Shown here: one piece after another, positions 2,256 through 22,110 of the stretch | Position numbering within the stretch: the stretch's first letter is position 1 | Layout of the letters: every line of letters starts with the position of its first letter | From: Vulcanimicrobiota bacterium | Lineage (GTDB): Bacteria; Vulcanimicrobiota; Vulcanimicrobiia; Vulcanimicrobiales; Vulcanimicrobiaceae | NCBI GenBank assembly: GCA_003135555.1 | Contig: PLCF01000066.1 | Location: 1-29,320, forward strand | Length of the DNA: 29,320 bases | Direction of reading: 5' to 3' | Program-made: the position numbers and the translations under genes | Notes under the pieces: model-generated | The model's database searches: none | The model's input: the letters and a program-made list of their open reading frames with translations, nothing else | What the model was told of the DNA's origin: nothing

Positions 2256-3241
2256 TACTTGCTCTTCGTGAAGACCGAATCGTCTACGGCGACGTTCGTC
2301 TTATAGTCGGTATAGGTGCCGTGAGCCACGGCTTTCGCGTAGGGAATCGCGATCTCGGCATTCTGCTCGGCGAGCATCGAATAGCCCCCGACCTCGCGGA
2401 AGGTCTGGGTCATCGTGATGTGCCCTCCATTGTAGTAGTCATAACGGATCGAGTCGATGGCCCACGAGCTCGGATCCACCAGGACCGTCTCGTGATCGAT
2501 CATCCCGCGAACCCGTTGTACGAGCCGCAACTCGAGATCCTTACGGCCGCCGAATTCGTGTTCACCCTGATACGTCACGACGAAACGACGCTCCCAGCTC
2601 GACGGGTCCCCGATGTCGGTGAACATCTTGTCGAAGCCTTTGGCGAGCGGGGGCACCTTGTCGAAGACGACCTCGTAGCTCGACGGCCGCTTGTAGTACG
2701 TGGCGCCGTCGAGGTGCTGCCGCAAGAACGGAAACGAGGTCAGCCGGAGGTCGACGTGGAGCCGCCCCTGATAGGAGCTCAGGCTGGGATTGCGTTCTTC
2801 GACCCGGGCCAGAATGGTGGCCGGATCCGTCGGATGGTCGGCGCCCGCGAGCGCGGGGATACCGACCAAGGTCAGCACCGCGGCGAAGGATGCCGCCGTC
2901 AGGCGTCCCAGCAGGTTGGCGGCCCGCCGGGGCGCCTCCGCCGGACGGAGCGGAAACGCGAAAACGCGCTCGAGCCCGCTCAGCGCGAGGGTATTGCGGA
3001 CCGCGGCGCTGCGCGGGATGACTTCGATCGCGCCGCCGCGCTCGCGTAGCCGGCGCAGGCCGGTAACCAGCCCGGCGACGGTCTCGGGCGGGAGGCGTTC
3101 CCCGTCGAGGACAACCGTCAGCCGGCCCGCCTGCTCGCCGTCTTCGGCAAGCAGCGCGTCGACGGCGGCGGCGACCCGCGTACGGGCCTCGGGATCGTCG
3201 GCATTCAATTGGATCTGCGTATGATGCGGTGTCGGTTCCAT
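2255..3241 (-). CDS. Fusion protein: STAS-like domain + TM/signal segment + LolA-like (lipoprotein-carrier fold) periplasmic domain
   Basis: N-terminal 'GLVTGLRRLRERGGAIEV...AVRNTLALSGLERVF' is STAS-like; hydrophobic segment ending 'PALAGAD'; beta-rich C-domain ending 'YTDYKTNVAVDDSVF', typical of LolA-like folds. Start taken at ATG 3241. Confidence 0.6.
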   Translation of the reverse strand: MEPTPHHTQIQLNADDPEARTRVAAAVDALLAEDGEQAGRLTVVLDGERLPPETVAGLVTGLRRLRERGGAIEVIPRSAAVRNTLALSGLERVFAFPLRPAEAPRRAANLLGRLTAASFAAVLTLVGIPALAGADHPTDPATILARVEERNPSLSSYQGRLHVDLRLTSFPFLRQHLDGATYYKRPSSYEVVFDKVPPLAKGFDKMFTDIGDPSSWERRFVVTYQGEHEFGGRKDLELRLVQRVRGMIDHETVLVDPSSWAIDSIRYDYYNGGHITMTQTFREVGGYSMLAEQNAEIAIPYAKAVAHGTYTDYKTNVAVDDSVFTKSK

Positions 3242-3249
3242 GATTCTCA

Positions 3250-3314
3250 TGCGTGTAGGTACTTGCACGAACACGATAGCACGGCGCTTGTATTCATGCA
3301 AGTACCCGCTTGCA
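3250..3314 (-). promoter_or_regulatory. Sigma70-type promoter of the efflux operon with two 18-bp operator-like palindromes
   Basis: Minus strand TTGCAT (3301-3296), 17 nt, TATCGT (3278-3273) with upstream TG (extended -10). Palindrome TGCAAG-N6-CTTGCA at 3297-3314; degenerate copy TGCGTG-N6-CTTGCA at 3250-3267. Confidence 0.6.
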
Positions 3315-3323
3315 ATTCAGTGC

Positions 3324-4106
3324 GTGCGACTACCTGATCTAGCCGTGCTCGGCGAGCAAACGGGACTCGGCGCGGCCCAGATTCATGTCCGCCGGCTCGC
3401 CCCCGACGGCCCAAACTGGACCCGGGACGACGGACGCACCGTCTACCCCGCTTCGCTCATCAAGCTGCCGCTGGCAACCGCGGCGGCCGCGGCGATCGCC
3501 GCCGGCCGGCTGGACTGGGAAACGGCCGTGACCGTCCAGGCGCGCAATCTCACCCTCAACGACGCGCCCTCGCCCTGCGTGGCCGGCTACCGTTCGACGG
3601 TGCGAGAGCTCGCGACGCTGATGCTGCAGCGCTCCGACAACGTCGCTACCAATCAGCTGTACGACCTTCTGGGCCGCGACCGGGCCACCGCCGACGTGCA
3701 AGCGCTCGGCTACCCGGAGATCGTTTTCCGGCGCAAGTTGTCGGGTGCGCTGCCGCTCATCGACGACCCTGACGCCACCGGGCGCAACGTGTTCCCGGCC
3801 GCGGCCGCAGCGCGGCTTTTGACTGCCATCGCCGAGCGGCGGGTGCCGCACGCGGACGTGCTGCTGAACATTTTGTCGACGTCGTGGTGGGACGTGAAGC
3901 TTTCCCGCGGGCTCGAGCCGGCCGACCGCTTCGCGCACAAGACCGGCGACACCGACGAGGTCGCGCACGACGCCGGGATCCTCACGCTGCCCGGCGGCGC
4001 ACGCTGGGTGGTCGTCGTCTACACCCAGCTCGCGAGCAGCGACGAGGCCGATGCGCGCTTCGGCGAATTCATGCGCGCGCTGCGTCCGTTTCTGCTCGCG
4101 GCGTAG
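3324..4106 (+). CDS. Serine hydrolase, class A beta-lactamase-like (Beta-lactamase2 family)
   Basis: SxxK (YPASLIK), SDN (QRSDNVATN) and KTG (AHKTG) motifs; no signal peptide; start uncertain (GTG 3324 chosen). Confidence 0.85.
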   Translation: MRLPDLAVLGEQTGLGAAQIHVRRLAPDGPNWTRDDGRTVYPASLIKLPLATAAAAAIAAGRLDWETAVTVQARNLTLNDAPSPCVAGYRSTVRELATLMLQRSDNVATNQLYDLLGRDRATADVQALGYPEIVFRRKLSGALPLIDDPDATGRNVFPAAAAARLLTAIAERRVPHADVLLNILSTSWWDVKLSRGLEPADRFAHKTGDTDEVAHDAGILTLPGGARWVVVVYTQLASSDEADARFGEFMRALRPFLLAA

Positions 4107-7260: not shown

Positions 7261-7983
7261 GTGAGCTTGGTGTTCGAAAACGTCGGCGTCCGTTACGGCG
7301 GGGTCGATGCGCTGCGCGCCGTCACGCTCTCGATCGAGCGCGGCCACGTCCTGGGTTTGATCGGCCCAAACGGTGCCGGCAAGACCACCCTCGTCAACGC
7401 GACGACCGGGCTGGCGCCGCTCGCCTCGGGGACGATCGCGCTCGACGGGCAGCGCATCGACGGACTGCCGACGCACCGCATCGCGCGCTCCGGCATCGCG
7501 CGCACCTATCAGAACATTCGCTTGTTCGGGGCGCTCGACGTCCGTGCGAACCTCGCCGCCGGCGGGTACGCGCGTCGCACGCGGGCGACCGCGGCCGAGA
7601 TCCGGTCGTTGCTCGAGCGCGCGGGGATCGAGCGTCTCGACCTCGCCGCGCGGGCGGGCTCGCTGCCGTACGGCGATCAGCGCCGGCTGGAGATCGCGCG
7701 CGCGCTGGCCATGGCGCCGGCGGTGTTGATGCTCGATGAGCCGGCGGCGGGGATGAACCCGTCGGAGACGACGCGCTTGGTCGAAACGATTCGCGCGATC
7801 GCCGCCGGCGGCATCGCCGTGTTGCTGATCGAGCACGACATGACCCTCGTCCGCGCCGCCTGCGACTCCGTGGTCGTCCTCAACTTCGGCGAGCTGATCG
7901 CCCGCGGTACGCCCGCGCAGGTCGCGCGCGACCCGGTCGTCGTCGAAGCCTATTTGGGCAGCGGCGCCGAGGCGCTGGCATGA
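7261..7983 (+). CDS. livG: Branched-chain amino acid ABC transporter ATP-binding protein LivG
   Basis: Walker A GPNGAGKTT; RTYQNIRLF; LPYGDQRRLEIARALA; LDEPAAGMNP; IEHDM. Confidence 0.93.
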   Translation: MSLVFENVGVRYGGVDALRAVTLSIERGHVLGLIGPNGAGKTTLVNATTGLAPLASGTIALDGQRIDGLPTHRIARSGIARTYQNIRLFGALDVRANLAAGGYARRTRATAAEIRSLLERAGIERLDLAARAGSLPYGDQRRLEIARALAMAPAVLMLDEPAAGMNPSETTRLVETIRAIAAGGIAVLLIEHDMTLVRAACDSVVVLNFGELIARGTPAQVARDPVVVEAYLGSGAEALA

Positions 7984-8720
7984 CCGAGCCGGCGCCCAGT
8001 GCGGTCACGGCCGCGCCGGCGTTGCTCGCGGTCGAGTCCATGCGGGCCGGATACGGCAACATCGAAGTGTTGCACGACGTCTCGATCGAGCTCGCCACCG
8101 GGACGCTGTGCGCGATCGTCGGCGCGAACGGCGCCGGCAAGACCACCCTTTTGATGGCGCTGGCCGGCATCGTGCCGGCGCGCAGCGGCCGCGTCCGCTT
8201 CGACGGGGCGGAGATCACCCGGCTCGCCTCGCACGAGCGGGTGCGGCGCGGCCTCGTCCTGGTGCCCGAAGGGCGCCGCATGCTGCCCGGGATGAGCGTC
8301 GAGGAAAACCTCCAGGTCGCCGCCGGCGCTCGCGGCGCGGCGGGGTTCGCGCGGATCGAGGGGCTGTTCGACCGTTTCCCGATCCTGCGCACCCGGCGCA
8401 ACCTCCCGGCCGGCTCGCTATCCGGCGGTGAGCAGCAGATGCTCGCGATCGCCCGAGCCTTGGCGATCGGGCCCGCGGCCCTGCTGCTCGACGAGCCGTC
8501 GATGGGCCTCGCCCCCAAGCTCGTCGACGAGATCTTCTCGATCATCGCCGACGAGCGCCGGCACGGCACCTCGATCCTGCTCGTCGAGCAGAACGCGCGC
8601 CGTGCGCTCGCGCTCGCCGATTCCGCCTACGTCATGGAACGCGGTCGCGTCGTGCTCAGCGGTACCGGGGCGGAGCTTGCGACGCACCGCGACGTGGTCG
8701 CAGCCTACCTCGGCGGCTGA
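7980..8720 (+). CDS. livF: Branched-chain amino acid ABC transporter ATP-binding protein LivF
   Basis: GANGAGKTT; VPEGRR; LSGGEQQMLAIARAL; LDEPSMGLAP; VEQNA. Confidence 0.93.
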   Translation: MTEPAPSAVTAAPALLAVESMRAGYGNIEVLHDVSIELATGTLCAIVGANGAGKTTLLMALAGIVPARSGRVRFDGAEITRLASHERVRRGLVLVPEGRRMLPGMSVEENLQVAAGARGAAGFARIEGLFDRFPILRTRRNLPAGSLSGGEQQMLAIARALAIGPAALLLDEPSMGLAPKLVDEIFSIIADERRHGTSILLVEQNARRALALADSAYVMERGRVVLSGTGAELATHRDVVAAYLGG

Positions 8721-8738
8721 GAACCGTTCGCGGAAACG

Positions 8739-8840
8739 GTGGAACACTGTGAGGCCCGGTGGATAACCTCACATTCTTGTGGACGAGCGCATCATCCGGG
8801 CGCTCGACCCCTTGCGGAGCCCTCACCGCCGCCGTATGAT
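8739..8840 (+). promoter_or_regulatory. Unit 1 promoter with phased GTGGA boxes
   Basis: GTGGA at 8739, 8759, 8779; TTGCGG 8812-8817, 17 nt, TATGAT 8835-8840. Confidence 0.75.
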
Positions 8841-8846
8841 CCGCAC

Positions 8847-9010
8847 ACGTCGGAGGCAACGAAGACGCGCGAGTGACGAGAAGCTCGCCGGCAGCAATGC
8901 CGATTCGAAGTTCGACGCCGTCTTGGCCGATGAATAATTGGCGAGGACACGCGCAGATCGATTCCCGTGCTATCGAAGCCGTTTGGGGAAACCCGGACGG
9001 CTTTGTCGCA
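8847..9010 (+). ncRNA. Putative structured ncRNA, copy 1 (short form, ~164 nt)
   Basis: Starts at A, 7 nt after the -10; shares stems with copies 2-4; the P3 insert is reduced to CGGCA-GCAA-TGCCG. Confidence 0.7.
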
Positions 9011-9092
9011 TCTCGACGTCCGCGGCGCCGGGGGGGCGAGCTCACCGGCTCCGCCTGTGCGTGCGAACGGGGGGAGGCCGGCCGTCTGCGCT

Positions 9093-9203
9093 GTGGATTG
9101 CGGGGATTGATGTGGGTTGGCGTGGAGAAGTCACATTTCTTGTGGACAAGCCGCGTTTGCGGGTTTGAGGGTATTGCGCCGCTGGGCGAGCTGCACGTAT
9201 GAT
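9093..9203 (+). promoter_or_regulatory. Unit 2 promoter with phased GTGGA boxes
   Basis: Boxes at 9093, 9102, 9112, 9122, 9142; TTGCGC 9174-9179, 18 nt, TATGAT 9198-9203. Confidence 0.75.
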
Positions 9204-9209
9204 GCGATC

Positions 9210-9415
9210 ACGTCGAAGGCAACGACGACGGGCGAGCGACGAGAAGCTCGCCGGCGCAGAAACGATGACGCGAGGCGCAAGTTGAGCGGCATTTGAACGA
9301 AACGCCGATTCGAAGTTCGACGCCGTCTTGGCCGATGAAAGTTGGCGAGGACACGCGCAGATCGATCCTCGTGCTGATTGAAGCCACGTAGGGAAACTTA
9401 CGGGGCTTCGTCGCA
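9210..9415 (+). ncRNA. Putative structured ncRNA, copy 2 (~206 nt)
   Basis: Same stem order; GNRA loops (GCAA, GAAA); 3' hairpin GAAGCCACGTAGG-GAAA-CTTACGGGGCTTC. Confidence 0.7.
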
Positions 9416-9485
9416 TTCCGGGGGCCCCGCCGGCATCGGCGAGCTCGATGCTGCCGCGTCACGCGCGTTCCAGCCCGATCGCGCT

Positions 9486-9596
9486 GTGAATTGCGTGAAT
9501 TGCTGCGGAACGCCGTGGACAACGCAACTTTCTTGTGGACAAGCATCGATTCGGCGTTTTGGCCTCTTGCACTATCGACGCGGGCGCAGGTATGAT
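9486..9596 (+). promoter_or_regulatory. Unit 3 promoter with phased GTGGA boxes
   Basis: Boxes at 9486, 9495, 9505, 9515, 9535; TTGCAC 9567-9572, 18 nt, TATGAT 9591-9596. Confidence 0.75.
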
Positions 9597-9602
9597 GCGT
9601 AC

Positions 9603-9815
9603 AAGTCGATGGCAACGTCGACTGCGAGTGACGAGAAACTCGCCGGTGCGGTGAAGCGAGGTGACGAGCGATGAAAGTCGAGCGGCGCGTCGAGAGAAGT
9701 ACCGACAACGAAGTTCGACGCTGTAATGGCCGGCGAAAGCCGGCGAGGACGTGCGCAGATCGGATTCTCGTGCTGACCGAAGCCGTGCGGGGCAACTCGT
9801 GCGGCTTCGTCGCGT
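9603..9815 (+). ncRNA. Putative structured ncRNA, copy 3 (~213 nt)
   Basis: AGTCGATG-GCAA-CGTCGACT 5' hairpin; GCCGGC-GAAA-GCCGGC; GAAGCCGTGCGGG-GCAA-CTCGTGCGGCTTC. Confidence 0.7.
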
Positions 9816-9853
9816 TCAAGGCTCGTGCACGCGCGCGAATTGCGATTTGGCCT

Positions 9854-9943
9854 GTGGAATGCGCGATTCGACGTGGAGAACGCAACATTCTTGTGGACGA
9901 GCGGACGTGCGGTATTGCGCAGTGATTTGGCGTGCGCTACGAT
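9854..9943 (+). promoter_or_regulatory. Unit 4 promoter with phased GTGGA boxes
   Basis: Boxes at 9854, 9873, 9893; TTGCGC 9915-9920, 17 nt, TACGAT 9938-9943. Confidence 0.7.
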
Positions 9944-9949
9944 TCGAAC

Positions 9950-10150
9950 ACGTCGGCGATTCGTCGGCGGGCGAGTAGCGAGAAGCTCGCCGGTGGGAAT
10001 CGCATCACGGAAGGCGTCAGCCCGACGGATGCGAGATCGCCGAGACGACGTGAGAACGCCCCCCTGGCTGAGATTTCGGCGAGGAGACGCGCAGATCGAT
10101 TCTCGTGCAGACCGAAGCCGCGTAGCGATTGCCGCGCGGCTTCGTCGCGT
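9950..10150 (+). ncRNA. Putative structured ncRNA, copy 4 (most diverged, ~201 nt)
   Basis: Retains GCGAG..CGAGAAGCTCGCCGG, GGCGAGGA..GCGCAGATCGATTCTCGTGC and GAAGCCG..CGGCTTCGTCGC. Confidence 0.65.
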
Positions 10151-10174
10151 ACGTCGGTCGCCTGCTAGTCGCCG

Positions 10175-10678
10175 TTAGTTGCCGTTCCAGGCGGTGAAGG
10201 GCGCTGGTTTGGCGTACGGCGGGCCGACTTCGATCGTCACGTCGAGGTGTTGGGGGAGCTCGATCTTGCGCGGATCGCCGGCGTAGGGCCGGCCGCTGAG
10301 CCAGATCGCGACGTGCTCGCCGTTACCGGGTTTCGCCCCTGCGACGTCGGCCTTTCCCAACGGCTGTCCCCAAACGTCGAAAAACTCGCCCAACGTGAAC
10401 GTGCGAAAGCGCGGCGCCTCGATATGGATGATCCCGTCGGGCGTATGCGTGTGGATCCAGTAGAGGCACTGTGCGGCCAGCGGCCGGCCGACGTCGTCGG
10501 GGATCGCGACCGGCTTGCCGTGATCCAAAACGGTGAGGTGCTGATGGATGTGCAGCACCGCGCCCTCCATCTGGTCGCAGCGAATCCCATCGACCGGCCG
10601 GCCGGCCGGAACCGCCGCGCGCACGGGTGAGAGGCACGAGAACGCGGCCAGCGCGGCCACGGTGACGAACAGCTTCAT
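10175..10678 (-). CDS. Secreted hypothetical protein with a conserved-looking His/Cys motif set (putative metal binding)
   Basis: Signal peptide MKLFVTVAALAAFSCLSPVRA; HIHQHL and CLYWIHTHTPDGIIHIE motifs; GGGAG SD spacing favours ATG 10678 over 10687. Confidence 0.8.
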   Translation of the reverse strand: MKLFVTVAALAAFSCLSPVRAAVPAGRPVDGIRCDQMEGAVLHIHQHLTVLDHGKPVAIPDDVGRPLAAQCLYWIHTHTPDGIIHIEAPRFRTFTLGEFFDVWGQPLGKADVAGAKPGNGEHVAIWLSGRPYAGDPRKIELPQHLDVTIEVGPPYAKPAPFTAWNGN

Positions 10679-10729
10679 CGATCGCATCGCTCCCGTACAA
10701 CGCGACTTCGAGCGATCCCGTTCCTGCTG

Positions 10730-11758
10730 TCACCCTGACGTGGTGTCAGCTGCGGCTGAGCCTGGTCGAAGGCCGTAGCGCGCGGCCAGCCGCCGCGCGA
10801 TGTCGGCCGCGGCGCGGCGCGCTTCTTCGGGCGCGATGACCTCGGCTTCGGCTCCCCATCCCAGCGAGAAGCGGACGATCTCGAGCGCGTCGGCGACGCG
10901 GTACGTGATGTCGACTCCGCCGTCATCGGCCGGGACCACGCGGCGATCGCGGGCGACCGTCGACGCGGCGGTTGCCGCCTTGGCGACGACCGGCGAGAAC
11001 CGCACCGTGACCTCACCCAGCGTCGCGCCGTGCACCACGCCGCTCACCGAGTTCGCCCCGTAGGCTTCGAGGTTGAAGTCGGCGGGGCGCTCGAACGTCT
11101 GCGGCGTCACGGCGGCGTCCGAGACATTGTCGACTGCGAACACCCGCATGTCGGTGCGCGTGTGGTCGTACCCCACCAGATAGACGCGGCCGTTCGAGAC
11201 GATGAAACCGTACGGGTCGACTCGCCGCTGGGTACGTACGCCGTTCTTGTCGGTATAGCCGAACGCGACGCGGCGATGCTCGCGCTGGGCGCCCTGGAGC
11301 TGCTCGAAGACGCGCTCGACGCCGGCGTCCATCGAGACCGCCTCGAAACGGATCGCGAACGAGCTGGTCTCCACGGCCGCCTCGGTGCGCCGGTCGCTGG
11401 AGCGCAGCAGCTTCTGCGTCGTCTCCTCGATGGCGCTGGCGAACGTACCGCCGAGCGAAGAGCCCAGCCGTTTGAGCGTGACCAGGCCCAGCAGCTCGCG
11501 ATGCGAGAGGTTGAGCCGGCGCAAACTGTAGCCCTCGGCAAACCGGTACTTCCCGCTGGTCCGCTCGAAGAACCATGGGAATCCGGCATCGGAAAGAACG
11601 CTCAGATAGCGCCGCAACGTCCGCGTGCTGGGGGGCTTCTCGTCGGCGATCTCGTCCTTGAGCTCCTCGAAGGTGAAGCGGCCCTCGTCGATCGCGCTGA
11701 GCAGCCGCACCAAGAGGACGACTTTGGGTTCGGCCCGTTCCTCCGCCACCCGGGCCAT
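10730..11758 (-). CDS. WYL-domain transcriptional regulator (wHTH-WYL-WCX; YafY/PafBC-like)
   Basis: N-terminal HTH 'STRTLRRYLSVLSDAGFP'; WYL core 'RRVDPYGF...YLVGYDHTRTDMRVFAVDNV'; 'FERPADFNL'; WCX 'LGWGAEAEVIAP'. Confidence 0.92.
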   Translation of the reverse strand: MARVAEERAEPKVVLLVRLLSAIDEGRFTFEELKDEIADEKPPSTRTLRRYLSVLSDAGFPWFFERTSGKYRFAEGYSLRRLNLSHRELLGLVTLKRLGSSLGGTFASAIEETTQKLLRSSDRRTEAAVETSSFAIRFEAVSMDAGVERVFEQLQGAQREHRRVAFGYTDKNGVRTQRRVDPYGFIVSNGRVYLVGYDHTRTDMRVFAVDNVSDAAVTPQTFERPADFNLEAYGANSVSGVVHGATLGEVTVRFSPVVAKAATAASTVARDRRVVPADDGGVDITYRVADALEIVRFSLGWGAEAEVIAPEEARRAAADIARRLAARYGLRPGSAAADTTSG

Positions 11759-11859: not shown

Positions 11860-13209
11860 ATGGACGACCACCGCCCCGACACCTCCGTCGATCGGAAAGA
11901 GTTCCTCCGCCGCACCGGCGCCCTCGGCATCGCCGGGGCCGCCACGCTCGGCTTCCCGCTCCTCGAGACCCGCATCGCCGGCGCGTCGCCCCTGCTCCCC
12001 GCGCGTGACGTGATCGCCGCCGGCGGCGGCGCAACCGTCAAGATCGGCCACATCGACGGATTCTCCGGCGTGTATGCCGCGGCGTCGCAGTCGCAGCAGC
12101 ACGGGATGGAAGTCGCCGTCGCGGAAGCGATGAAAAAGAACAACCGCATCAAGTACGAGATCATCAAGGGCGACGACGCGAGCGCCGCGGCAACCGGCAC
12201 CACCGAAGCCAAGCGCCTCATCTCGCAAGAGAAGGTCGATCTCCTGACCGGCTGCCTGAGCTCGGCGGTCGGACTTGCCGTGTCGGCGACCGCGTCGCAG
12301 AACAACACCTTCTTCCTCGCCGTCGGCACGCACGACACGAACATCACCGGCCCGAAGGCGCACCGCGTAACCTTCCGCCAGACGTGCTCCAATGCGATGC
12401 TCGCAAACGCCATCGCGCCGGAGCTCATCAAACACGGCAAGAAATGGTACTTGCTCGTCGCCGACTACGCGTTTGGTACCGACGGCGCGGCGCGCGTCAA
12501 GAAGATCCTGCTCGCTCAAGGCGGCCAAGTCGTCGGCGAAGATCTGCACAAGTTGGGCGAAACCGACTATTCATCGTACCTGACCAAGGCGCGCAATACC
12601 GACGCCAACGTCCTGTTCTTCTCGAACTACGGCCCAGACTGTCAGAACTCGACCAAAGCGGCGGTCCAGCTCGGTCTCCACAAGAAGATGACCTTCGGCG
12701 GGATCTTGTCCGGCAACGATGTCGCCGTTGGGATGCCGGTCGACGACATCGTCGGTTCGATCTGGGGTTACGTATGGGGTCCCGAGGCCGGCGGCAACGC
12801 GATGGAAGTCTACAACGCCCTCAAGCCCGGTACCACCGAAGTCGACTGGCGCCAGTATCTCGGCTACATGGCCGCCCGCAACATCATCAACCGCGTCAAC
12901 GCCGCCGGCACGACGCAGACCGAAAAAGTCATCGAGGCTTTCGAGAACTACCACTACGACGCCGCCAAGAAGAGCGGCGCGTACTTCCGCAAGTGCGATC
13001 ACCAAGCGATCCAGCAAACCTACGCCGGCGTGATCGTGCCCAAGAGCAAGCGCCGCAGCCCGAACGAGTTTTTCACGATCGCAGCAACCATCGGCGGCGA
13101 GTACGCGGCCGAGTCGTGCGCGGCACCCGACAACGCCGCGGCCGAAAAGATCATCACGTCCGAAAAGGTCGGCGCGCGCGAAGGCTACACGCCGGTCTCG
13201 ACCAAGTAA
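11860..13209 (+). CDS. ABC transporter substrate-binding protein (Liv/Urt-type), Tat-like signal
   Basis: AAGGAG SD; 'DRKEFLRRTGALG' Tat-like motif; GCLSSAVGLAVS, VADYAFG, GETDYSSYL and FRKCDHQA motifs. Confidence 0.9.
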   Translation: MDDHRPDTSVDRKEFLRRTGALGIAGAATLGFPLLETRIAGASPLLPARDVIAAGGGATVKIGHIDGFSGVYAAASQSQQHGMEVAVAEAMKKNNRIKYEIIKGDDASAAATGTTEAKRLISQEKVDLLTGCLSSAVGLAVSATASQNNTFFLAVGTHDTNITGPKAHRVTFRQTCSNAMLANAIAPELIKHGKKWYLLVADYAFGTDGAARVKKILLAQGGQVVGEDLHKLGETDYSSYLTKARNTDANVLFFSNYGPDCQNSTKAAVQLGLHKKMTFGGILSGNDVAVGMPVDDIVGSIWGYVWGPEAGGNAMEVYNALKPGTTEVDWRQYLGYMAARNIINRVNAAGTTQTEKVIEAFENYHYDAAKKSGAYFRKCDHQAIQQTYAGVIVPKSKRRSPNEFFTIAATIGGEYAAESCAAPDNAAAEKIITSEKVGAREGYTPVSTK

Positions 13210-13723: not shown

Positions 13724-16024
13724 GTGTTCGAGGCGGTCGTTGGTGTCGCGCTCCGCGCGATTCTCGCGAGCGTCGTTCTGGGAGCGGCGCTCGCCGCGCT
13801 CGTCTTCGTTGCGACGCGCCTGCTGGCGCTGACGGCGGCGACGCGCCATGCGCTGTGGACGACCGCGCTCGTCGCGACCGCCCTGATGCCGCTCGCCGGC
13901 GTGGGCGTGAGTGTTTGGAAGGCCGCCAGTTTTCAAGGCGCTCCGCCCCAGGCTGCGCGCCCCCCGAGCGAAGCTCGGGGCCCCCGGGCCGAGCTCGCAA
14001 GAAACATGCCGATTCGGCACGAGGGTTCTGCGCTCGCTCCATCGCCGTCGCATCAGCAGCGCACAAGTGTTGCGACGGTTGGCGCGCCCGAGCCCGCTTC
14101 GGTTGCGTCGCCCTCATTTTTCGCCGCACTCTCCGACCGGCTCGCTATCATCCGCTGGTCGCCGCGCATGTCGCGCAACCTTGCCGTCGGCGTGGTCGGT
14201 GTGTGGGTCTTGGGCGCACTTGTCGGTCTGGTGGGGCTGGCGGCGGGGATCGCTCGCGTGCGCGGGCTCAAGCGGCGTTCGAGCCCGATCGACGGCACGC
14301 TCGCCGACGAGCTGCCGTGGTTGACCGCGGTCGGCCCGGGACGCGAGATCTATCTGCGGCTCTCCTATGAAACCGAAACCCCGGTAGCGATCGGTTTCCG
14401 CCGGCCGGTGATCTTGATTCCGACCGAGCTGGCCACAGCCGAGGGGCTCGCGGCAATCGAACAACTGATCCTGCACGAGTACGCGCACTTGCGCCGCAAC
14501 GACGATTGGACGAACCTCGTCCAGCGCACGATTGAGCGCGTCTTCTGGTTCAATCCGGTCGTATGGCTGGTCGGGCGCAGGATTGCCCTCGAGCGTGAGA
14601 TCGCCTCGGACGATGCCGTCGTCGAGAAGACCGGTGAAGCCCACGCGTACGCGGCGTCGCTGTGGAAGCTGGCGCGCGAGATGCGCATGCCCGAGCATTC
14701 CGTCGTCGCCCCCGGGGCGCTGCTCACCCGCAAGCAGATCACCGTGCGCATCGAGCAGTTGCTCGACGCCAAGCGCGGGCGCCTGCACCGGTCCCCCGCC
14801 GCGGCGCTGGGCATCGCCGTGGCGAGCCTCGCCGCGGTCGCATTGGTCGCCAGCAGCGCGCCAGCGGTCGAGCTGCCGGCGGAATCTCCGGTCGCGGTGA
14901 CCACTTCGGCGCCGCATGCGGCGAAGCCCAGCGCGCCAAAGCCCAGCGCAGAGACCTGGGTGCGCGCGAAGGTCGTCCCGGCGGCGGCCAAACCCGAGCG
15001 GGTCACGACCGCCCAACATCCGCCGGCATCGGTACGCTATGTGCTCGGGGCGCTCGCCACGCCGACGCCCGTCGTCCGGGAGCGGATCGTGAAAGTCTAC
15101 GAGCGCGTCGCGATGAATCCGCCCGCCGACGCGCCGGGTGCCGCGACCGCCGCTGCGCGTGCTGCCGCCGCCGCAGGTGCTGCCCCGATGCCGCCCATGC
15201 CGCCGTTGGCGTCGTTCTCGCCCGAGATTCCGCCCCGGCCAGGCGTGAGCCAAGCGACCGTGGCCGCGCGCGCCGCACGCAAGGCGCTCGTTGCCGAAGG
15301 ACAGGATTTCGCGAACATCGGCCACGAGATCGGTCGCGCCGTACACGAGGCCATGGCGACGGTCCCGCAACAGATCGCGCAAGAAACGACGGGCTCAGCC
15401 CACCGTACGCGAACCGACGGGCTGCGGCTCTCGCGCGAACTGATCGCGTCCTGCATCGGCTGCTCGTTTCGCAACGCCGACGCGCGCGGCGTGGACTTGC
15501 ACGGCGTGCGAATCAATGGTGACGACTTCACCGGCGCGGACTTGCGCGGGGCGAACCTCGCGGGCGCGTCGCTCATCGGCGTCTCGCTGACGCGCGCGAA
15601 CCTTTCGAATGCCGACCTGCGCGGTGCGCAGCTCAACGGTGTCGAGCTCCGCGGTGCGATCCTCGACGGGGCGCAACTCGAGAACGTGCACCTGATCGGC
15701 GTGTCGATCAAAGGCGTCAGCCTGCGCGGGGTAGCCCTGCGTGCCATCGTTGCGAACTGCACCGGCTGCGATCTCTCGGGGATCGATCTGCACGGCCAAG
15801 ACCTCCACGGAATCGCGCTCAACGGCGCCGATCTCAGCCACGCCGACCTTCACAACGCCAACTTGAGCGGGGTTCGGTTCAACGGGGTCGATTTAAGCAA
15901 CGCCAATCTCAACGGCGCCGATCTCAGCAACGCGCGCCTCGACGGCTGCGACCTGTCCGGCATCGACCTGCGCGGCGCCCGGACCGCCGGGATGACCATG
16001 CACGGGACGTCGCTGGGCGACTGA
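13724..16024 (+). CDS. BlaR1-like M56 metallopeptidase with a C-terminal pentapeptide-repeat domain
   Basis: RHALW TM; HEYAH zinc motif; FWFNPVVW; EREIASDD; TM, Pro/Ala linker, then A(D/N)LxG pentapeptide repeats with CIGC/CTGC caps. Confidence 0.92.
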   Translation: MFEAVVGVALRAILASVVLGAALAALVFVATRLLALTAATRHALWTTALVATALMPLAGVGVSVWKAASFQGAPPQAARPPSEARGPRAELARNMPIRHEGSALAPSPSHQQRTSVATVGAPEPASVASPSFFAALSDRLAIIRWSPRMSRNLAVGVVGVWVLGALVGLVGLAAGIARVRGLKRRSSPIDGTLADELPWLTAVGPGREIYLRLSYETETPVAIGFRRPVILIPTELATAEGLAAIEQLILHEYAHLRRNDDWTNLVQRTIERVFWFNPVVWLVGRRIALEREIASDDAVVEKTGEAHAYAASLWKLAREMRMPEHSVVAPGALLTRKQITVRIEQLLDAKRGRLHRSPAAALGIAVASLAAVALVASSAPAVELPAESPVAVTTSAPHAAKPSAPKPSAETWVRAKVVPAAAKPERVTTAQHPPASVRYVLGALATPTPVVRERIVKVYERVAMNPPADAPGAATAAARAAAAAGAAPMPPMPPLASFSPEIPPRPGVSQATVAARAARKALVAEGQDFANIGHEIGRAVHEAMATVPQQIAQETTGSAHRTRTDGLRLSRELIASCIGCSFRNADARGVDLHGVRINGDDFTGADLRGANLAGASLIGVSLTRANLSNADLRGAQLNGVELRGAILDGAQLENVHLIGVSIKGVSLRGVALRAIVANCTGCDLSGIDLHGQDLHGIALNGADLSHADLHNANLSGVRFNGVDLSNANLNGADLSNARLDGCDLSGIDLRGARTAGMTMHGTSLGD
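13937..14000 (+). repeat. Dispersed palindromic element, copy inside the M56 coding sequence
   Basis: GGCGCTCCGCCCCAGGCTGCGCGCCCCCCGAGCGAAGCTCGGGGCCCCCGGGCCGAGCTCGCAA matches the reverse complement of 5397-5461. Confidence 0.8.
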
Positions 16025-16085: not shown

Positions 16086-16934
16086 GTGATCCGTGGACTC
16101 GCTCTCGCCGCGGCCGCGCTCGCGCTGGCTGCACCCGCGGCACCCGTGATGGCGCAAGACGACGTCGCGCGCCAGCTGATCGACGCCTGTGTGGGCTGCC
16201 GCCTGCCGAAGGATCTGCACGGCCGCGACCTGCACGGATTGCGCTTCGTCGGCAGCGACTTGCGCAACGTCGACTTCTCGCACGCCAACCTCAGCGGCGC
16301 GCAGTTCACCGGCGCGAACCTCGACGGCACGCGCTTCGACGATGCGAACCTGCGCAACGCCCAGTTCATCGGGGTCCGGCTGCGCAGCACGTCGTTCGCG
16401 CGCGCGAACACCGAGGGTGTGCGCTTCGTCGGCGCGGCCGTTTCACAAGCCGACGTCGACGGCGCGGCCGGACGAGTGATAATACACGACTGCACCGGGT
16501 GCTCGTTCAAAGGTCTCGATCTGCACGATGCCGATCTGCGCGGCATCAGGATCGTCGGCGCCAGCCTGCGCGGGGCCAAGCTCGCCGGGGCACGCCTCAA
16601 CGATGCGCGCTTGACCGGCGTTGGCGCTCAAGGCGCCGATTTCTCCCGCACCGATCTGCGCGGCGCCAACTTGGTCGGTGCCAGCCTGCGCAGCGCGCGT
16701 TTAGAGGCCGCGACGATCGGCGACGCGGTCATCTGCAGTGAAAACCAAGGCGGAGAGCGTCCCACGACGTGCGTCGACTTGCGCGGCGTCGATCTCCACG
16801 GCCTCGATTTTCGGGCGGCACGGTACTGCAGCATCGAGTATCGCAACGACTACCGCGGCTGCCGCACCGTCACGCGCCAGGAGCTCACCGAGTTCGCCCA
16901 TGCCGACCTCAGCGGCGCGCAAGCGCCCACGTAA
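16086..16934 (+). CDS. Secreted pentapeptide-repeat protein
   Basis: AAGGAG SD; signal peptide; CVGC and CTGC caps; ANLSG/ANLDG/ADLRG repeats. Confidence 0.9.
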   Translation: MIRGLALAAAALALAAPAAPVMAQDDVARQLIDACVGCRLPKDLHGRDLHGLRFVGSDLRNVDFSHANLSGAQFTGANLDGTRFDDANLRNAQFIGVRLRSTSFARANTEGVRFVGAAVSQADVDGAAGRVIIHDCTGCSFKGLDLHDADLRGIRIVGASLRGAKLAGARLNDARLTGVGAQGADFSRTDLRGANLVGASLRSARLEAATIGDAVICSENQGGERPTTCVDLRGVDLHGLDFRAARYCSIEYRNDYRGCRTVTRQELTEFAHADLSGAQAPT

Positions 16935-17898: not shown

Positions 17899-20800
17899 CT
17901 ATTCCGGATCGCTGAACAGGAACGCGAGGTCGTCGCGGGTGAGCGTTTTCGCGACGGCGCTGTCGGCCTTGACCACGGCTTTGGACAGCGCGGTCTTGCG
18001 CTCGGCCAGCGCGCGGATCTTCTCTTCGACCGAGCCGGCGGTGACCATCCGATAGGCGGTAACCGGGCGCGTCTGGCCGATCCGGTGGGTGCGGTCGATG
18101 GCCTGTCGCTCGACGGCCGGATTCCACCACGGGTCGTACAGGATGACGTAGTCGGCGGCGGTGAGCGTCAGCCCGACGCCGCCGGCCTTGAGCGAACACA
18201 GGAACACCGGCGGCCCCTCGTCGCTCATGAAGCGCTCGACCTCGGCTTGACGGTCGCGGTCCTTGGTCGCGCCGTCGAGGTAACCGTAGCGCACGTTCTT
18301 GCGGTCGAGCGAGGTCCGCATGATCTTGAGCATCGACGAGAACGCGCTGAACACCAGCACCTTGTGCCCGCCGTCGAGCACCTCTTCGACGGTCTCCATG
18401 AATGCGTCGAATTTACCGCTGGCATCGGGATCGTCGAGGTACTCCGGCACGAGCAAGCCGGGATGCGCGCACACCTGGCGCAGCCGAGTCAGCGCCGCGA
18501 GCACGTGGACGGTGGTCGACTCGGCGCCGTCGTCGTCGAACTTCGCCAGCACGTCGCGGCGCGCGGCCTCGGCTATGCCGCGATAGAGCCGCCGTTGCAG
18601 CGGGGTCAGCTCGCACTCGATCACCGCCTCGGTGCGCTCGGGCAGCTCGCGGGCGACGTCTTCCTTCGTCCGGCGCAGGACGAAGGGCTCCAGGCGCGAG
18701 CGCAGCGCCGCCGCGGCGCCTTCGTCGCCGTCGGCGATCGGCAGCTCGAAGCGGCGGCGGAACGAGGTCTCGGAGCCCAGCAAGCCCGGTTCGACGAAGC
18801 CGAAGATCGCCCACAGATCGCGCAGCGAGTTCTCGACCGGCGTCCCGGTCAGCGCCAGCCGGTGATCGGCCTGCAGCCCGCGCACGACCTTGGCGATCTG
18901 CGAGCCCGGGTTCTTGGCGTTCTGGGCCTCGTCGAGCACCAGCGTCCGGAAGCGGAAGCGCTCGAGCTGATGCGCGTCGAGCCGAGCCAAGGCGTAGGAC
19001 GTGACCACGACGTCGTAGTCGAAGATCGTCTCGTACTTGGCCGCCCGGTCGCTGCCCGACTGTAGCCGCAGCGTCCGCAGCGACGGCGCGAACTTCTTGA
19101 TCTCGTTCTCCCACGTATGCGTCACCGACGTCGGCGCAATGACCAGCACCGGAACCTCGCCTTCGATCTCCTTGCGCTTGAGAATGTGCGCGATCACCTG
19201 CACCGTATTGTGGGTGACGATAAAATCATCGGTTACGTACAGCTGATCCGGCGCATCGACCGCGATGCATTGCATTTCGCGAGGCTCGAGCGGCACTACC
19301 TTGACGATCGCCCGAGACGGTTGATACTTTGGACGACCGCCGAATCGTCCGGCTTTACGAGCGATTCGAAACGGGTTGAACCAGTCAAGAGCGATAGTTA
19401 CACGGTAGCCCGGCTTCCCAACGCGTTGTTCACCGCGATAGCGATACTTTGGAGCCGCCCTGTAATTCATTCGCGCCGTTCCGCTCAAGGATCGCACCAA
19501 GAATGCCACGCCTTCCGCGAGATCCTCAGACGCCGAGTAGAACTCCACATGCCCACGCGCATCAACGTATCCGTCCGTGTCCATCAACCCTTGCAGCAGC
19601 GCCAAACGTTGAGAAACGTCTCCAAGCAGGTACGCTGTGGGGATGAATTTCTTTTCGGACGTTCGTCCCATCAGACCATACTGCTTGAGGGTTCCGCGGA
19701 CGACGTTCGGAATGCTCGCCGCTGGCGATGCATTCAGCGCCATTCGGATGCGATATCCATATTGGCTGAACTGTACGATTTCCGTGCCGGTTGGCGTCAA
19801 CTGACGACATTCTTCGACAAGGTCCTCGTCGGCAGACGTCAGGTAGATGCTACTGCGCGACGAGATGCCTCCATCGCCCAGTAAGCAGCCCATCAGATAT
19901 GGATCGATGTCGTAACTGCTAGGCGAGCCGAAGCGCATGGGGCGCGCGATCGGAATGTAGTGACGCGCGTTGCCCGCAGCGTCGTGCAGCCGCTTCCGGA
20001 TCTCCGAGAGCGGTAAAACGCGAGGCGGATTGCCGCGCTTCTTTCGTACCGCCGAATTTACGAGCCAAAGGTGATCGTCAGAGCATACGGTCCACGAGCC
20101 GTCGCTAAAGAAGACGCGGAAAGCGGGGAGTTCTCCCTGCGGAAAGACACCCGTTACGCGTGAGATGCCACCTTCAGCGTTCATGATGCGGTCGCCCGGC
20201 ATCAAGTCACCAAAACGGCGCCAACCAGTCGGTGTTAGAACACGACAATTAACCGGTTGAGCTTTCCCGACGCCCATATCGTCCGCTAGAATTCCACCGA
20301 AACGGAACGACGACAGGTACGACAAGAAGTCCAACCCCCGGCGCTGGTAATCTCGCAGGACATGTTCGAGAATGTCGGGCGGCGGTACTTCTTCGATTCC
20401 GGCAAAGTTGCGCAAGCGTTCGCGGATGCGTTCGACTTCTGCGGGCAGTGCGACGTCGCCGAAGGCTTCGTGCAACTCGTCGCGCATCGCGACGAGTGAG
20501 GCCAGTCCCGTGCGGCGGCGATCGGTCAGCTCGGAGAGCAGGTACTGGCGCGAGCGCAGGTCGGCGACGTCGACGAGCTTGCCGCGCACTTCGGCGTAGC
20601 GCCCCTTCGAGCCCAGCAGCGCGCGCAGCTCCTCGCGCGTGAGCGGCTGGCCGCCGCCGACGAACACCGCCACGTCGAGCTCGAACCAATCACCGACCTC
20701 GGCCGCGGTCGCGCTGACCGAGACGTCGACCTTGCCGCCGCCGGCCAGCGCCGCAAGCGATTCGTCGAGCCGAATCTCGACGTCGTCCCACGACGGCCAG

Positions 20801-22110
20801 ACCGTGCGCACGATCTCGGCCGCGCGGTCCGCATCGTGCAGCGCGAAGCCGTCGCCGCCGCGCGGCACGAACCCCGCTTCCAAGAACCGCCGGGCGAAGC
20901 CGCGCGCGACGTCGGGCGCCCAGCGCACGAAGCGTCCGCCGCTGGCGCTCACCGCACCGTGCGGGCTGAAGGTCGCGAAGCCGCCGCTGTCGCGATCGAG
21001 GAAGGCCAGTCGCGCCGCCAACGCGCCGTCACGCCAAGCGGCGCGAACGACGAGCGCCGGACGTTGCACGTCGACGACACCGAGATCGGCGCGCTCTTCG
21101 CCGGTCAGGAACGGTGCGACACGAGCGATGGCCCGAATCGACGGAGCTTCGGTTGCGTCGACTGCGTCCGACGCTTCGCCGGCGGCGGCGCGAGCGGCTG
21201 CGACGACCTTGCGCGCATCGAAAGATCCGTCGAGCAGAAATGCGCAGCGTTCGGCGACCAGCCACGCAGGCGGACCGTCGACCACCGCCGCCTCGGCCGC
21301 GGAGATGCGACTGCCTTCGGGCGTTTCGAGCACCGGTGAGAAGCGAGCGCCGGTGCGCGCGGCGCGCAACCGGATGCCGCGCGATTCGACCGCGAACGGC
21401 GGCAGCTCCGAGGGGTGGCGATTCTCGCCCGGCGCGTCGTCGAAGCGCAGTCGCGGGTGGCGCGCCAGCCGGAAGAGCGCGCGCGCCAGCGCCTTGGACG
21501 ACGCTCGCGCACCGAACGCCTCTTGCACGGCGTCGTCACGCAGCATCGTGCGGTCGACGTCGTCCCAGTCGTCGGGCGGAGTCTGGTCCATCATCGCCAG
21601 GATCGCGTCGGCGTCGCGAATCACCCCACGCAGCCGCGGCGTGTCGAGGTAGAGTGCGCCGCTGAGCATCCCGCCGTTGCCGACCGCGAGCACCGGCCAG
21701 ACCGCACGCGCCCGCGCACGCGCCCCGTCCGGTTCGGCGTCGGGGAGCCAGGAGAGGTCCGGCTCGAATCTGTCGGCGGCCAAGGGCGCGAGCGCCGCCT
21801 CTTCGGCGTTGCGCACGACCTCGAGCGTCGCGACGACGTGCTCGCACACCCCGCTTGCGCCGCAGGAGCAGACCGCCCGCAGCGCCTGCGGCCCGGTCCC
21901 CGAGGCCCACTCGACCGCTGTGCTGACCGGCAAGCGCTCCTTGACGGTCGCTTCGATCCGGATCGCCTCGACGGAACGCAAAACGACGCGCTCGCCCTCG
22001 ACGAGGCTGAGCGCAGCACGGGTCAGGTCACGGGCGAACCAGGTTCCGATCTGCGCCGGAAGGCGCGACCGCCACAGCGCGTACGGGGTCAACCTACCGT
22101 CTTTCGCCAC
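17899..22110 (-). CDS. SWIM zinc-finger SNF2-family helicase/ATPase containing an intein
   Basis: SWIM CSCGASGVCEH; LRDYQ; LADDMGVGK[intein]T; LDEAQ; LTGTPVEN; SLKAGGVGLTL; DPWWNP; QAIDRTHRIGQ. Confidence 0.95.
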   Translation of the reverse strand: MAKDGRLTPYALWRSRLPAQIGTWFARDLTRAALSLVEGERVVLRSVEAIRIEATVKERLPVSTAVEWASGTGPQALRAVCSCGASGVCEHVVATLEVVRNAEEAALAPLAADRFEPDLSWLPDAEPDGARARARAVWPVLAVGNGGMLSGALYLDTPRLRGVIRDADAILAMMDQTPPDDWDDVDRTMLRDDAVQEAFGARASSKALARALFRLARHPRLRFDDAPGENRHPSELPPFAVESRGIRLRAARTGARFSPVLETPEGSRISAAEAAVVDGPPAWLVAERCAFLLDGSFDARKVVAAARAAAGEASDAVDATEAPSIRAIARVAPFLTGEERADLGVVDVQRPALVVRAAWRDGALAARLAFLDRDSGGFATFSPHGAVSASGGRFVRWAPDVARGFARRFLEAGFVPRGGDGFALHDADRAAEIVRTVWPSWDDVEIRLDESLAALAGGGKVDVSVSATAAEVGDWFELDVAVFVGGGQPLTREELRALLGSKGRYAEVRGKLVDVADLRSRQYLLSELTDRRRTGLASLVAMRDELHEAFGDVALPAEVERIRERLRNFAGIEEVPPPDILEHVLRDYQRRGLDFLSYLSSFRFGGILADDMGVGKAQPVNCRVLTPTGWRRFGDLMPGDRIMNAEGGISRVTGVFPQGELPAFRVFFSDGSWTVCSDDHLWLVNSAVRKKRGNPPRVLPLSEIRKRLHDAAGNARHYIPIARPMRFGSPSSYDIDPYLMGCLLGDGGISSRSSIYLTSADEDLVEECRQLTPTGTEIVQFSQYGYRIRMALNASPAASIPNVVRGTLKQYGLMGRTSEKKFIPTAYLLGDVSQRLALLQGLMDTDGYVDARGHVEFYSASEDLAEGVAFLVRSLSGTARMNYRAAPKYRYRGEQRVGKPGYRVTIALDWFNPFRIARKAGRFGGRPKYQPSRAIVKVVPLEPREMQCIAVDAPDQLYVTDDFIVTHNTVQVIAHILKRKEIEGEVPVLVIAPTSVTHTWENEIKKFAPSLRTLRLQSGSDRAAKYETIFDYDVVVTSYALARLDAHQLERFRFRTLVLDEAQNAKNPGSQIAKVVRGLQADHRLALTGTPVENSLRDLWAIFGFVEPGLLGSETSFRRRFELPIADGDEGAAAALRSRLEPFVLRRTKEDVARELPERTEAVIECELTPLQRRLYRGIAEAARRDVLAKFDDDGAESTTVHVLAALTRLRQVCAHPGLLVPEYLDDPDASGKFDAFMETVEEVLDGGHKVLVFSAFSSMLKIMRTSLDRKNVRYGYLDGATKDRDRQAEVERFMSDEGPPVFLCSLKAGGVGLTLTAADYVILYDPWWNPAVERQAIDRTHRIGQTRPVTAYRMVTAGSVEEKIRALAERKTALSKAVVKADSAVAKTLTRDDLAFLFSDPE
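19207..20262 (-). mobile_element. Class 3 intein (352 aa) with LAGLIDADG homing endonuclease
   Basis: Splits Walker A GK|T. Begins AQPVNCRVLTPTGW; block B SDDHLW; LAGLIDADG motifs LMGCLLGDGG and LLQGLMDTDG; block F MQCIAVD; ends VTHN followed by Thr(+1); visibly lower GC than the host gene. Confidence 0.95.

Follow-up and report, generated by a model that had tools for sequence, protein, structure and literature searches.

A tandem array of four structured, pseudoknotted RNAs behind phased GTGGA repeats belongs to a new non-coding RNA family of the Eremiobacterota

The window analysed here is the whole stretch of 29,320 nucleotides (nt) that opens above, from contig PLCF01000066.1 of the Vulcanimicrobiota assembly GCA_003135555.1, and our subject is the gap between its livF gene and the gene that converges on it. 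Between the end of the livF open reading frame (ORF) at 8720 and that of the convergent ORF at 10175 lies an intergenic gap of 1454 bp. Positions 8738–10151 of the forward (+) strand consist of four paralogous, diverged direct-repeat units, in a region of 62% GC. Repeat families D2, D3, D5, D8 and D13 have four copies each at a spacing of 335–405 nt, and when the four units are aligned, columns are on average 68% identical. Each unit begins with GTGGA repeats phased at 10 bp, continues with a predicted promoter of the form TTGCr-N17/18-TAyGAT and ends with an RNA of 166–214 nt that starts from the A of ACG. In the rows below, P1 and P2 are paired elements of the RNA, and bit scores are those of a covariance model (R1) built from the four window copies.

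8738–8788 (+): upstream repeat array of unit 1, DnaA-box-like GTGGA repeats, GGTGGAAC..TGTGAGG..GGTGGATAAC..TTCTTGTGGACGAGC
8812–8840 (+): predicted promoter of unit 1, TTGCGG (8812–8817), 17 nt, TATGAT (8835–8840), first base A8847
8847–9012 (+): RNA of unit 1, 166 nt, a short form without the P3 insert domain, 169.8 bits
8869–8888 (+): P2 of unit 1; pseudoknot strands at 8876–8882 and 8962–8968, with one A.C mismatch
9091–9151 (+): upstream repeat array of unit 2, six 10-bp registers, CTGTGGATTG CGGGGATTGA TGTGGGTTGG CGTGGAGAAG TCACATTTCT TGTGGACAAG
9174–9203 (+): predicted promoter of unit 2, TTGCGC (9174–9179), 18 nt, TATGAT (9198–9203), first base A9210
9210–9417 (+): RNA of unit 2, 208 nt, 219.2 bits
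9211–9230 (+): P1 of unit 2; P2 at 9232–9251; pseudoknot strands at 9239–9245 and 9366–9372; terminal hairpin at about 9373–9414
9484–9544 (+): upstream repeat array of unit 3, including CGTGGACAAC and TTCTTGTGGACAAGC
9567–9596 (+): predicted promoter of unit 3, TTGCAC (9567–9572), 18 nt, TATGAT (9591–9596), first base A9603
9603–9816 (+): RNA of unit 3, 214 nt, 188.1 bits
9624–9643 (+): P2 of unit 3; pseudoknot strands at 9631–9637 (ACGAGAA) and 9765–9771 (UUCUCGU)
9852–9902 (+): upstream repeat array of unit 4, CTGTGGAATGCG..CGTGGAGAAC..TTCTTGTGGACGAGC
9915–9943 (+): predicted promoter of unit 4, TTGCGC (9915–9920), 17 nt, TACGAT (9938–9943), first base A9950
9950–10151 (+): RNA of unit 4, 202 nt, the 'last-copy' paralogue type, 180.9 bits
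9971–9990 (+): P2 of unit 4; pseudoknot strands at 9978–9984 (GCGAGAA) and 10100–10106 (UUCUCGU)

RNAalifold applied to the four window copies recovers P1, P2, P3, P4 and the 3' hairpin, with 65 pairs of which 10 are compensated. The fold runs through the P1 hairpin, the P2 hairpin, P3 closing an optional insert, a CGAAGU junction, P4, the pseudoknot strand and a long terminal hairpin. P1 has a GCAA loop, P4 combines a GNRA loop with a CAGA bulge, and the P3 insert domain is absent from unit 1. Unit 2 has a GNRA loop (GCAA or GAAA) at the tip of P1, of the P3 insert, of P4 and of the terminal hairpin; such loops are not universal, the P4 loop of unit 4 being GAUU. The minimum free energy of the unit 2 RNA is −90.5 kcal/mol on the + strand (z = −4.45), a value that none of 200 shuffled sequences matched, against −74.9 kcal/mol (z = −2.31) on the − strand. 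The original prediction, made from the sequence of the window, had described a gap of about 1.45 kb holding four diverged units, with these promoter motifs and first bases, a common order of P1 to P4 and 3' hairpin, and an RNA read from the + strand; all of this is borne out. It mentioned neither the pseudoknot nor the conserved array of repeats upstream.

Searching with R1 returned 86 full-length copies of 58–219 bits, located in the window and in 29 other loci of the same genus; two of these copies (locus L011) are from G032, a genome that is unpublished, and the conclusions are independent of them. In an alignment of the 86 copies fitted to the covariance model (A5), 93.0% of cells pair compared with a mean of 83.6% after shuffling, none of 500 shuffles being as high, and changes on both sides are found at 41 of the 65 pairs. 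Controls in which the 3' partner was slid by 1–3 columns gave 26–44% paired cells and 14–21 pairs with both-side changes. G-U pairs are frequent at many positions (columns 268–292 are GU in 33 sequences and columns 41–240 in 27), which identifies + as the RNA strand. Because A5 had been fitted to the model, we added a structure-blind MAFFT alignment (A3) of 70 of the 71 near-full-length copies found by nhmmer, leaving out L011:273–481. From A3, RNAalifold predicts 38 pairs, 25 of them with compensatory changes. In the terminal hairpin, 12 of the 14 pairs covary. The RNA fold is under selection.

A mutual-information scan over all A5 column pairs brought out a further helix that lies outside the model, a pseudoknot between the P2 loop and a conserved 3' strand. 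It comprises seven pairs, r-CGAGAA against UUCUCGy, and is 97.6% paired on A5. Four of its pairs change on both sides: columns 41–240 are AU in 28 copies, GC in 28 and GU in 27, and columns 44–239 are CG in 77 and UA in 5. On A3 the helix is 96.7% paired with both-side changes at four of the seven pairs (27 cells), and all six slid controls gave no such pair. Helix 7 of R1 (CGA..UCG, A5 columns 156–160 and 235–239) conflicts with the pseudoknot and has no compensatory change, and was dropped on these two grounds. Conserved unpaired stretches are short, at about 4–7 nt.

This is a real and new non-coding RNA (ncRNA) family. Scanning the 4227 models of Rfam 15 gave no gathering-score match in the whole window or in 10 homologous loci (30,829 bases). 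In E-value mode, 8700–10200 gave three matches far under the gathering score (Pseudomon-Rho, ceN40 and BASRCI408; E 2.7–8.5), which were rejected as noise. Full-text literature searches found no description of this RNA, and the accessible part of the preprint 10.64898/2026.10.21.760802 contains no mention of Eremiobacter, WPS-2, Vulcanimicrobi or DnaA.

Within G000, the assembly to which the window belongs (98 contigs, 84% complete), matches occur solely at C34:8833–10148. BLASTN found matches in 33 of 36 genomes of the same genus, mostly several copies in tandem, the three genomes without a match being 72–84% complete; none of five sister-family genomes matched, and a third family gave only short marginal matches in 2 of 19. 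With strict filters, R1 detected the RNA phylum-wide (151 genomes) in 6 of 6 genomes of the genus, singly in two further genera of its family, and in none of 79 genomes sampled from 20 other families. A second model built from the 86 copies (R2) matched 19 of 151 genomes of the family: all eight of the genus, all four of a second genus, and others singly. The tallies for R2, for the neighbouring protein P170 and for a third model (R3), both introduced below, include the unpublished genomes G260 and G201 and six others, those six for P170 only. A pattern scan of a genome collection returned at least 122 stretches, of which 80 were fetched. Eight loci contained real copies (101–186 bits), and among the matches listed their record titles all name Vulcanimicrobiota, Candidatus Eremiobacteraeota, WPS-2 or Candidatus Elarobacter; of the other fetched stretches, 71 had no covariance-model match, and L094 (Actinomycetota; 24 bits) is probably a chance match. 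The scan cannot prove absence elsewhere. As far as searched, the RNA family is restricted to one family of the Eremiobacterota (record names Candidatus Elarobacter and Baltobacteraceae).

In a tree, the 86 copies cluster by array position and not by genome; the copies adjoining P170 (the unit 4 type) form one clade drawn from more than 20 arrays. Since clades follow array position, the paralogue types predate the species. No shared ORF was found in the 86 homologues: the longest closed ORF has a median length of 15.5 amino acids (aa) and reaches at least 30 aa in 19 copies on the + strand, start columns are scattered, and indels in the insert domain disregard the reading frame.

A promoter pattern, TTGNNN-N16-19-TANN[AC]T-N5-8-(+1), is kept in all 86 homologues, and inverted copies with a promoter of their own occur in some arrays (L024, L025). 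Contigs of the Logan resource from four RNA-library runs (at most three samples, from three studies), mapped onto 8600–10300, lie on 8855–8968, 9222–9388, 9635–9782 and 9967–10151 at 90–100% identity. The highest mean word depths of single contigs on the array are 6500 and 3329. The 3' end of livF (8600–8827) and spacers such as 8999–9169, 9797–9910 and 10196–10300 carry no such contigs, and 9398–9625 is mostly without them (depth 14 in three bins only), which does not count as evidence of silence. DNA of this stretch occurs in peat and soil metagenomes. The four informative adapter junctions all have one orientation; with Illumina adapters this would place the second mate on the + strand, a weak hint. 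A second weak hint comes from contigs of run X17, which have A-rich loose ends after 8967, 9375 and 9773. These positions correspond to one another in the three units and immediately precede the terminal hairpin, so that the RNA may end there without it, by processing or tailing.

With these data we regard it as very probable that the units form a real family of independently transcribed, structured ncRNAs. The original prediction had seen them as an unrecognised family of paralogous sRNA genes, separately transcribed, under structural selection and sharing no ORF. The Rfam scans agree that the family is unrecognised, separate transcription is supported by the promoters, the inverted copies and the contigs on each unit, selection on the RNA is evident in both alignments, and the ORF claim stands. 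Covarying copies do exist, 86 in 30 same-genus loci with the window included, and scattering of the kind expected of a miniature inverted-repeat transposable element (MITE) was looked for and not seen, the array being the only such locus in G000 and syntenic in relatives. The label 'paralogous sRNA genes' is read here as paralogous structured RNA genes with predicted ends; 'sRNA' in the base-pairing sense goes beyond these data.

Upstream of the promoters, the 130-nt regions of the 86 copies contain GTGGA 193 times on the RNA strand and 12 times on the other. Its positions peak at −117/−116, −108/−107, −88/−87, −78/−77, −68/−67 and −58/−57, one helical turn apart in two registers, so that the repeats span about −125 to −57 before each copy. 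The proximal repeat reads TTTCTTGTGGAcAAGC and is a perfect TGTGGAyAA in 28 of the 86 copies and in two other genera. The DnaA-box consensus is TTATCCACA (complement TGTGGATAA), or TTGTCCACA in high-GC bacteria, and the upstream repeats match it as candidate DnaA boxes; copies in G176 and G189 carry TGTGGATAA upstream. Because of this match DnaA is a candidate reader of the repeats. The genome G000 has 128 sites of GTGGANAA, and its densest 600-bp windows are the array (4 sites) followed by C88:752–910 (3 sites), just upstream of dnaA; as the motif came from the array, only the rank of the dnaA-upstream region is independent. TGTGGAcAAG-type boxes lie upstream of dnaA in four of five genomes examined.

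Four points count against DnaA. The perfect nine-base motif TGTGGANAA is limited to 36 of the 86 upstream regions, the remaining ones being off by one or two bases. The motif of the density comparison was taken from the array. The dnaA gene is distant, on contig C88 in G000 and, in the single-contig genome G020, at position 443 compared with 1.368 Mb for the array; in G007 the two are on different contigs. Finally, phased direct repeats would suit a winged-helix response regulator equally well, as would a triplet of TCCACA (TGTGGA) repeats with 11-bp spacing that lies elsewhere in G000 (C69, about 20897–21193; L194 2398–2430), upstream of two small ORFs. This triplet may be another site of the same DNA-binding factor. 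DnaA is thus a tentative candidate, for which we would put the case at somewhat short of even. That the array might itself be oriC is ruled out, since dnaA is not nearby in G000, G020 or G007; an origin would be expected beside dnaA or dnaN and with an AT-rich unwinding element, and the region has a GC content of 62%.

The genes that flank the array are the following.

7980–8720 (+): livF-type ABC ATPase, the upstream neighbour, conserved in the genus (28 of 29 loci)
10175–10687 (−): hypothetical protein P170, His-rich and secreted, which adjoins the RNA locus as a conserved neighbour across the family

Within the genus, livG-livF is followed by the RNA array, after which come P170 and a WYL regulator, both convergent with it; P170 is seen in 20 of the 29 loci, and the remaining loci end before its position. 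The regulator, of WYL-WCX type (10730–11758, −), shares the orientation of P170, is located immediately upstream of it and accompanies the RNA locus in three genera. The P170 protein has 170 aa and is secreted; it contains many invariant histidines (HIHQH, WxHTHTPDGIIHIE) and two invariant cysteines, and belongs to no Pfam or NCBIfam family. Its 2920 homologues are all annotated 'hypothetical', under the names Candidatus Elarobacter, Eremiobacteraeota and Baltobacteraceae. The mean pLDDT of its AlphaFold2 model is 70.7, and Foldseek found no match in the PDB at E ≤ 0.001, the best (E 0.15) being a putative metal-binding beta-grasp-like protein. P170 looks like a periplasmic metal-binding protein. 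It is present in 147 of the 151 family genomes, as against 19 for R2 and 26 for R3, and its presence therefore does not track the RNA.

The RNA nonetheless always adjoins P170, in other genera too (G176, G189), where its orientation and the livF neighbour differ: the orientation relative to neighbours flips between genera, and no liv genes lie beside the RNA outside the genus. When the DNA beside P170 in 14 genomes without a known RNA was searched without speed filters, it gave matches of 44 and 39.9 bits and four weaker ones (15.7–20.3 bits) at the same place in other genomes; three further weak matches lay elsewhere. All six P170-side matches are divergent from the start of P170 and form a second subtype, with the 5' sequence ACUUCAGCAAUGAAGU and a terminal hairpin as in the first. 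The P2 loop of this subtype is AACGUGA, of which ACGUG pairs with 3' CACGU; as loop and partner strand both differ from those of the first subtype, the pseudoknot has been retained through several compensating changes. The subtype 2 promoter reads CTTGaa-N17-TAnAnT, with upstream GTGGA at −97 and −67. A minimal RNA of about 135–146 nt in G156 (L220 2709–2843) is without P4 but has P1 and P2 as well as the terminal hairpin and the pseudoknot strand.

With the model R3, built from four subtype 2 sequences, 26 of 151 family genomes gave matches; they represent 21 of 63 genera, the window's genus not among them. None of 79 genomes of other families matched. Among its 29 matches listed, 15 lie 124–209 nt (one 498 nt) from a listed P170 match and are divergent from it. 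In G183 two subtype 2 copies with identical scores (C6:325731–325928, +, and 327312–327509, −) are inverted about 1.4 kb apart, and the genome has no P170 match. This distribution suggests an ancestral unit, P170 <- repeats -> RNA, in which a single RNA gene would share its control region with the divergent P170 gene and the repeat-binding protein would also act on the P170 promoter. The window's genus would then have inverted the RNA part together with its repeats and amplified it to 2–4 specialised paralogues.

The explanation that best fits the whole, and to which we lean with modest confidence, is that of four independently transcribed, pseudoknotted ncRNA genes whose products act by binding and whose synthesis depends on a repeat-bound regulator. 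An oligomerising DNA-binding protein on the phased repeats, DnaA or a winged-helix response regulator being candidates, would switch RNA synthesis. The RNAs would act in trans through their folded core, serving as scaffold, decoy or sensor for a protein or small ligand that they bind. We infer action through the core because peripheral helices vary freely, mostly under GNRA loops, and because some copies have lost an entire domain, either the P3 insert or P4. Long antisense seeds are improbable given that the conserved unpaired bases are few and located at the junction and in the pseudoknot. We put a binding-type mechanism, drawn from the architecture only, at about even odds.

Several observations weigh against this reading. 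Pair counts on A5 are biased towards the model to which it was fitted, a bias that the structure-blind A3 mitigates, and helices 8, 10 and 11 of the model are invariant in sequence and to that extent unproven. A generic consensus scan of 8650–10250 called no sigma-70 promoter and no U-tract terminator, and the promoter call therefore rests on conservation across homologues; we treat these zero calls as a limitation of the scan and not as evidence against transcription. The −35 element agrees with TTGACA at just three of six positions, and the 3' hairpin is not followed by a run of T. The contigs give no transcript starts, ends, strand or level, and RNA libraries can contain DNA. No test that we ran identified a partner or ligand, and the adjacency of RNA and P170 could be inherited synteny and not a functional link.

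The alternative that survives best, though we think it unlikely, is that these are classical trans-acting base-pairing small RNAs (sRNAs) in multiple copies, like Qrr, LhrC and AbcR, which would act by a short seed on mRNAs, perhaps those of the nearby amino-acid ABC transporter genes. Candidate seeds would be CGAAGU between P3 and P4, or the P2 loop once the pseudoknot opens; the pseudoknot strands could also serve as the seed. Multi-copy sRNA sets with individual, factor-dependent promoters include Qrr1-5 of Vibrio, LhrC1-5 of Listeria, the NsiR1 tandem array of Nostoc and AbcR1/2 of the Rhizobiales; their RNAs measure about 60–110 nt and are simple hairpins with exposed seeds. Like these, the window's RNAs are paralogues, partly tandem and variable in copy number, each with its own terminal hairpin and its own promoter, here behind predicted regulator sites. 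The array adjoins a liv-type ABC operon, two genes for periplasmic binding proteins lie in the window, and AbcR and GcvB target such transporters. However, the window's RNAs are longer, nearly fully paired and, as a kind, depart from multi-copy trans-acting sRNA genes in having neither a conserved exposed seed of at least 8 nt nor a U-rich 3' tail. Their loop-to-3' pseudoknot, GNRA loops (on most hairpins) and optional peripheral domain are typical of tertiary-folded RNAs. The RNA does not lie beside liv genes in other genera, and a weak k-mer scan of G000 for complements of conserved segments gave only common GC-rich words.

The functional element might instead be the DNA, a DnaA-box cluster outside oriC that titrates or modulates DnaA in the manner of datA, DARS or the Bacillus clusters, with the transcripts secondary. 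The repeats do resemble those of datA, DARS, the Bacillus DnaA-box clusters and the dnaA promoter in being same-orientation 9-mer clusters that fit TGTGGAnAA, some 5–6 per unit over four units, with the same motif clustered upstream of dnaA here; the array holds the densest GTGGANAA cluster of the genome, and the perfect proximal box recurs in other genera. They differ in their helical phasing at 10 bp, their activator-like placement from −125 to −57 before RNA genes and their distance from dnaA, and the match itself is one of sequence. Covariation that includes the pseudoknot speaks of selection on the RNA itself, G-U-tolerant compensatory changes are not expected of a DNA-only element, and both the high-depth contigs on the RNA bodies and the universally kept promoter pattern argue the same way. 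We judge this alternative quite improbable, and the two roles could coexist.

Still less probable are cis-regulatory leaders or riboswitches for a neighbouring gene, livF upstream or P170 downstream. A compact junction with a pseudoknot does recall aptamers, and RNA and P170 have a common control region in other genera, but there the RNA is divergent from P170 and not upstream on the same strand, each unit of the window has its own promoter and a long end hairpin and is followed by another unit or a convergent gene, and no Rfam riboswitch model matches. A mobile or selfish MITE-like repeat, small-protein genes or a chance repeat, to which tandem repetition and the 19 longer ORFs might point, is hardly tenable given a sole matching locus in G000, a syntenic position in 28 of 29 genus loci, clades that follow array position, ORFs without a common start column and indels that ignore the reading frame.

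Parallels are also found among known complex RNAs. Like the orphan ncRNAs raiA, OLE, ROOL/GOLLD and HEARO, this family is lineage-restricted and has a covarying, multi-helix, pseudoknotted fold with conserved junction nucleotides and a function that cannot be deduced from context; unlike them, it matches no model, is much more narrowly distributed (one family of the Eremiobacterota) and comes as tandem paralogues with their own promoters. With 6S and Ms1 RNA, both abundant and structured and acting on RNA polymerase by binding it, the family shares size range, high apparent abundance in RNA libraries and stand-alone genes, but it is not a rod with a central bubble and it is multi-copy. The 6S model RF00013 gave no match at the array and none above cut-off in the genomes G000, G020 and G007, with one match of 28.6 bits at another locus, and since it detects just 5 of 14 genomes known to carry 6S RNA the scan is uninformative. 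A sponge of the CsrB/RsmZ type, with about 7–20 GGA motifs in loops, was rejected, each RNA having 2–3 GGA; in unit 2 these are confined to GAGGAC, a paired part of P4, and to the border of the terminal GGGAAAC loop.

The family adds a structured RNA from the Eremiobacterota (WPS-2), an uncultured phylum in which hardly any experimental genetics has been done, with a defined fold and pseudoknot, two subtypes and a minimal form, and with signs of very high abundance in soil metatranscriptomes. The front end of its promoters is unusual: GTGGA repeats that match the DnaA box recur five to six times in helical phase, and ancestrally they would have been common to a divergent gene for a secreted metal-type protein. 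Should DnaA read the repeats, the status of the replication initiator would be linked to an abundant regulatory RNA. In the fullest version of this idea, which we offer as rather improbable, the repeats are genuine DnaA boxes on which a DnaA filament turns on the abundant RNA and controls the divergent P170 gene, so that the amplified array would serve as a datA-like sink for the initiator and at the same time report the initiator's status through an RNA. A literature search found no direct link of that kind between replication control and a structured regulatory RNA.

Other features of the window include a class-A beta-lactamase-family ORF at 3240–4106 and a further Peripla_BP_6 gene at 11860–13209. 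The ORF at 13724–16024 (+) joins an M56 peptidase of the BlaR1 type to long stretches of pentapeptide repeats, and a separate pentapeptide-repeat protein follows at 16086–16934 (+). A second complete liv-type ABC transporter operon, with two permeases and two ATPases, occupies 24838–28369 (+). An SNF2-family helicase ORF of 1403 aa (17899–22110, −) has a LAGLIDADG_3 domain at residues 834–879, which may be an intein or a homing-endonuclease insertion.

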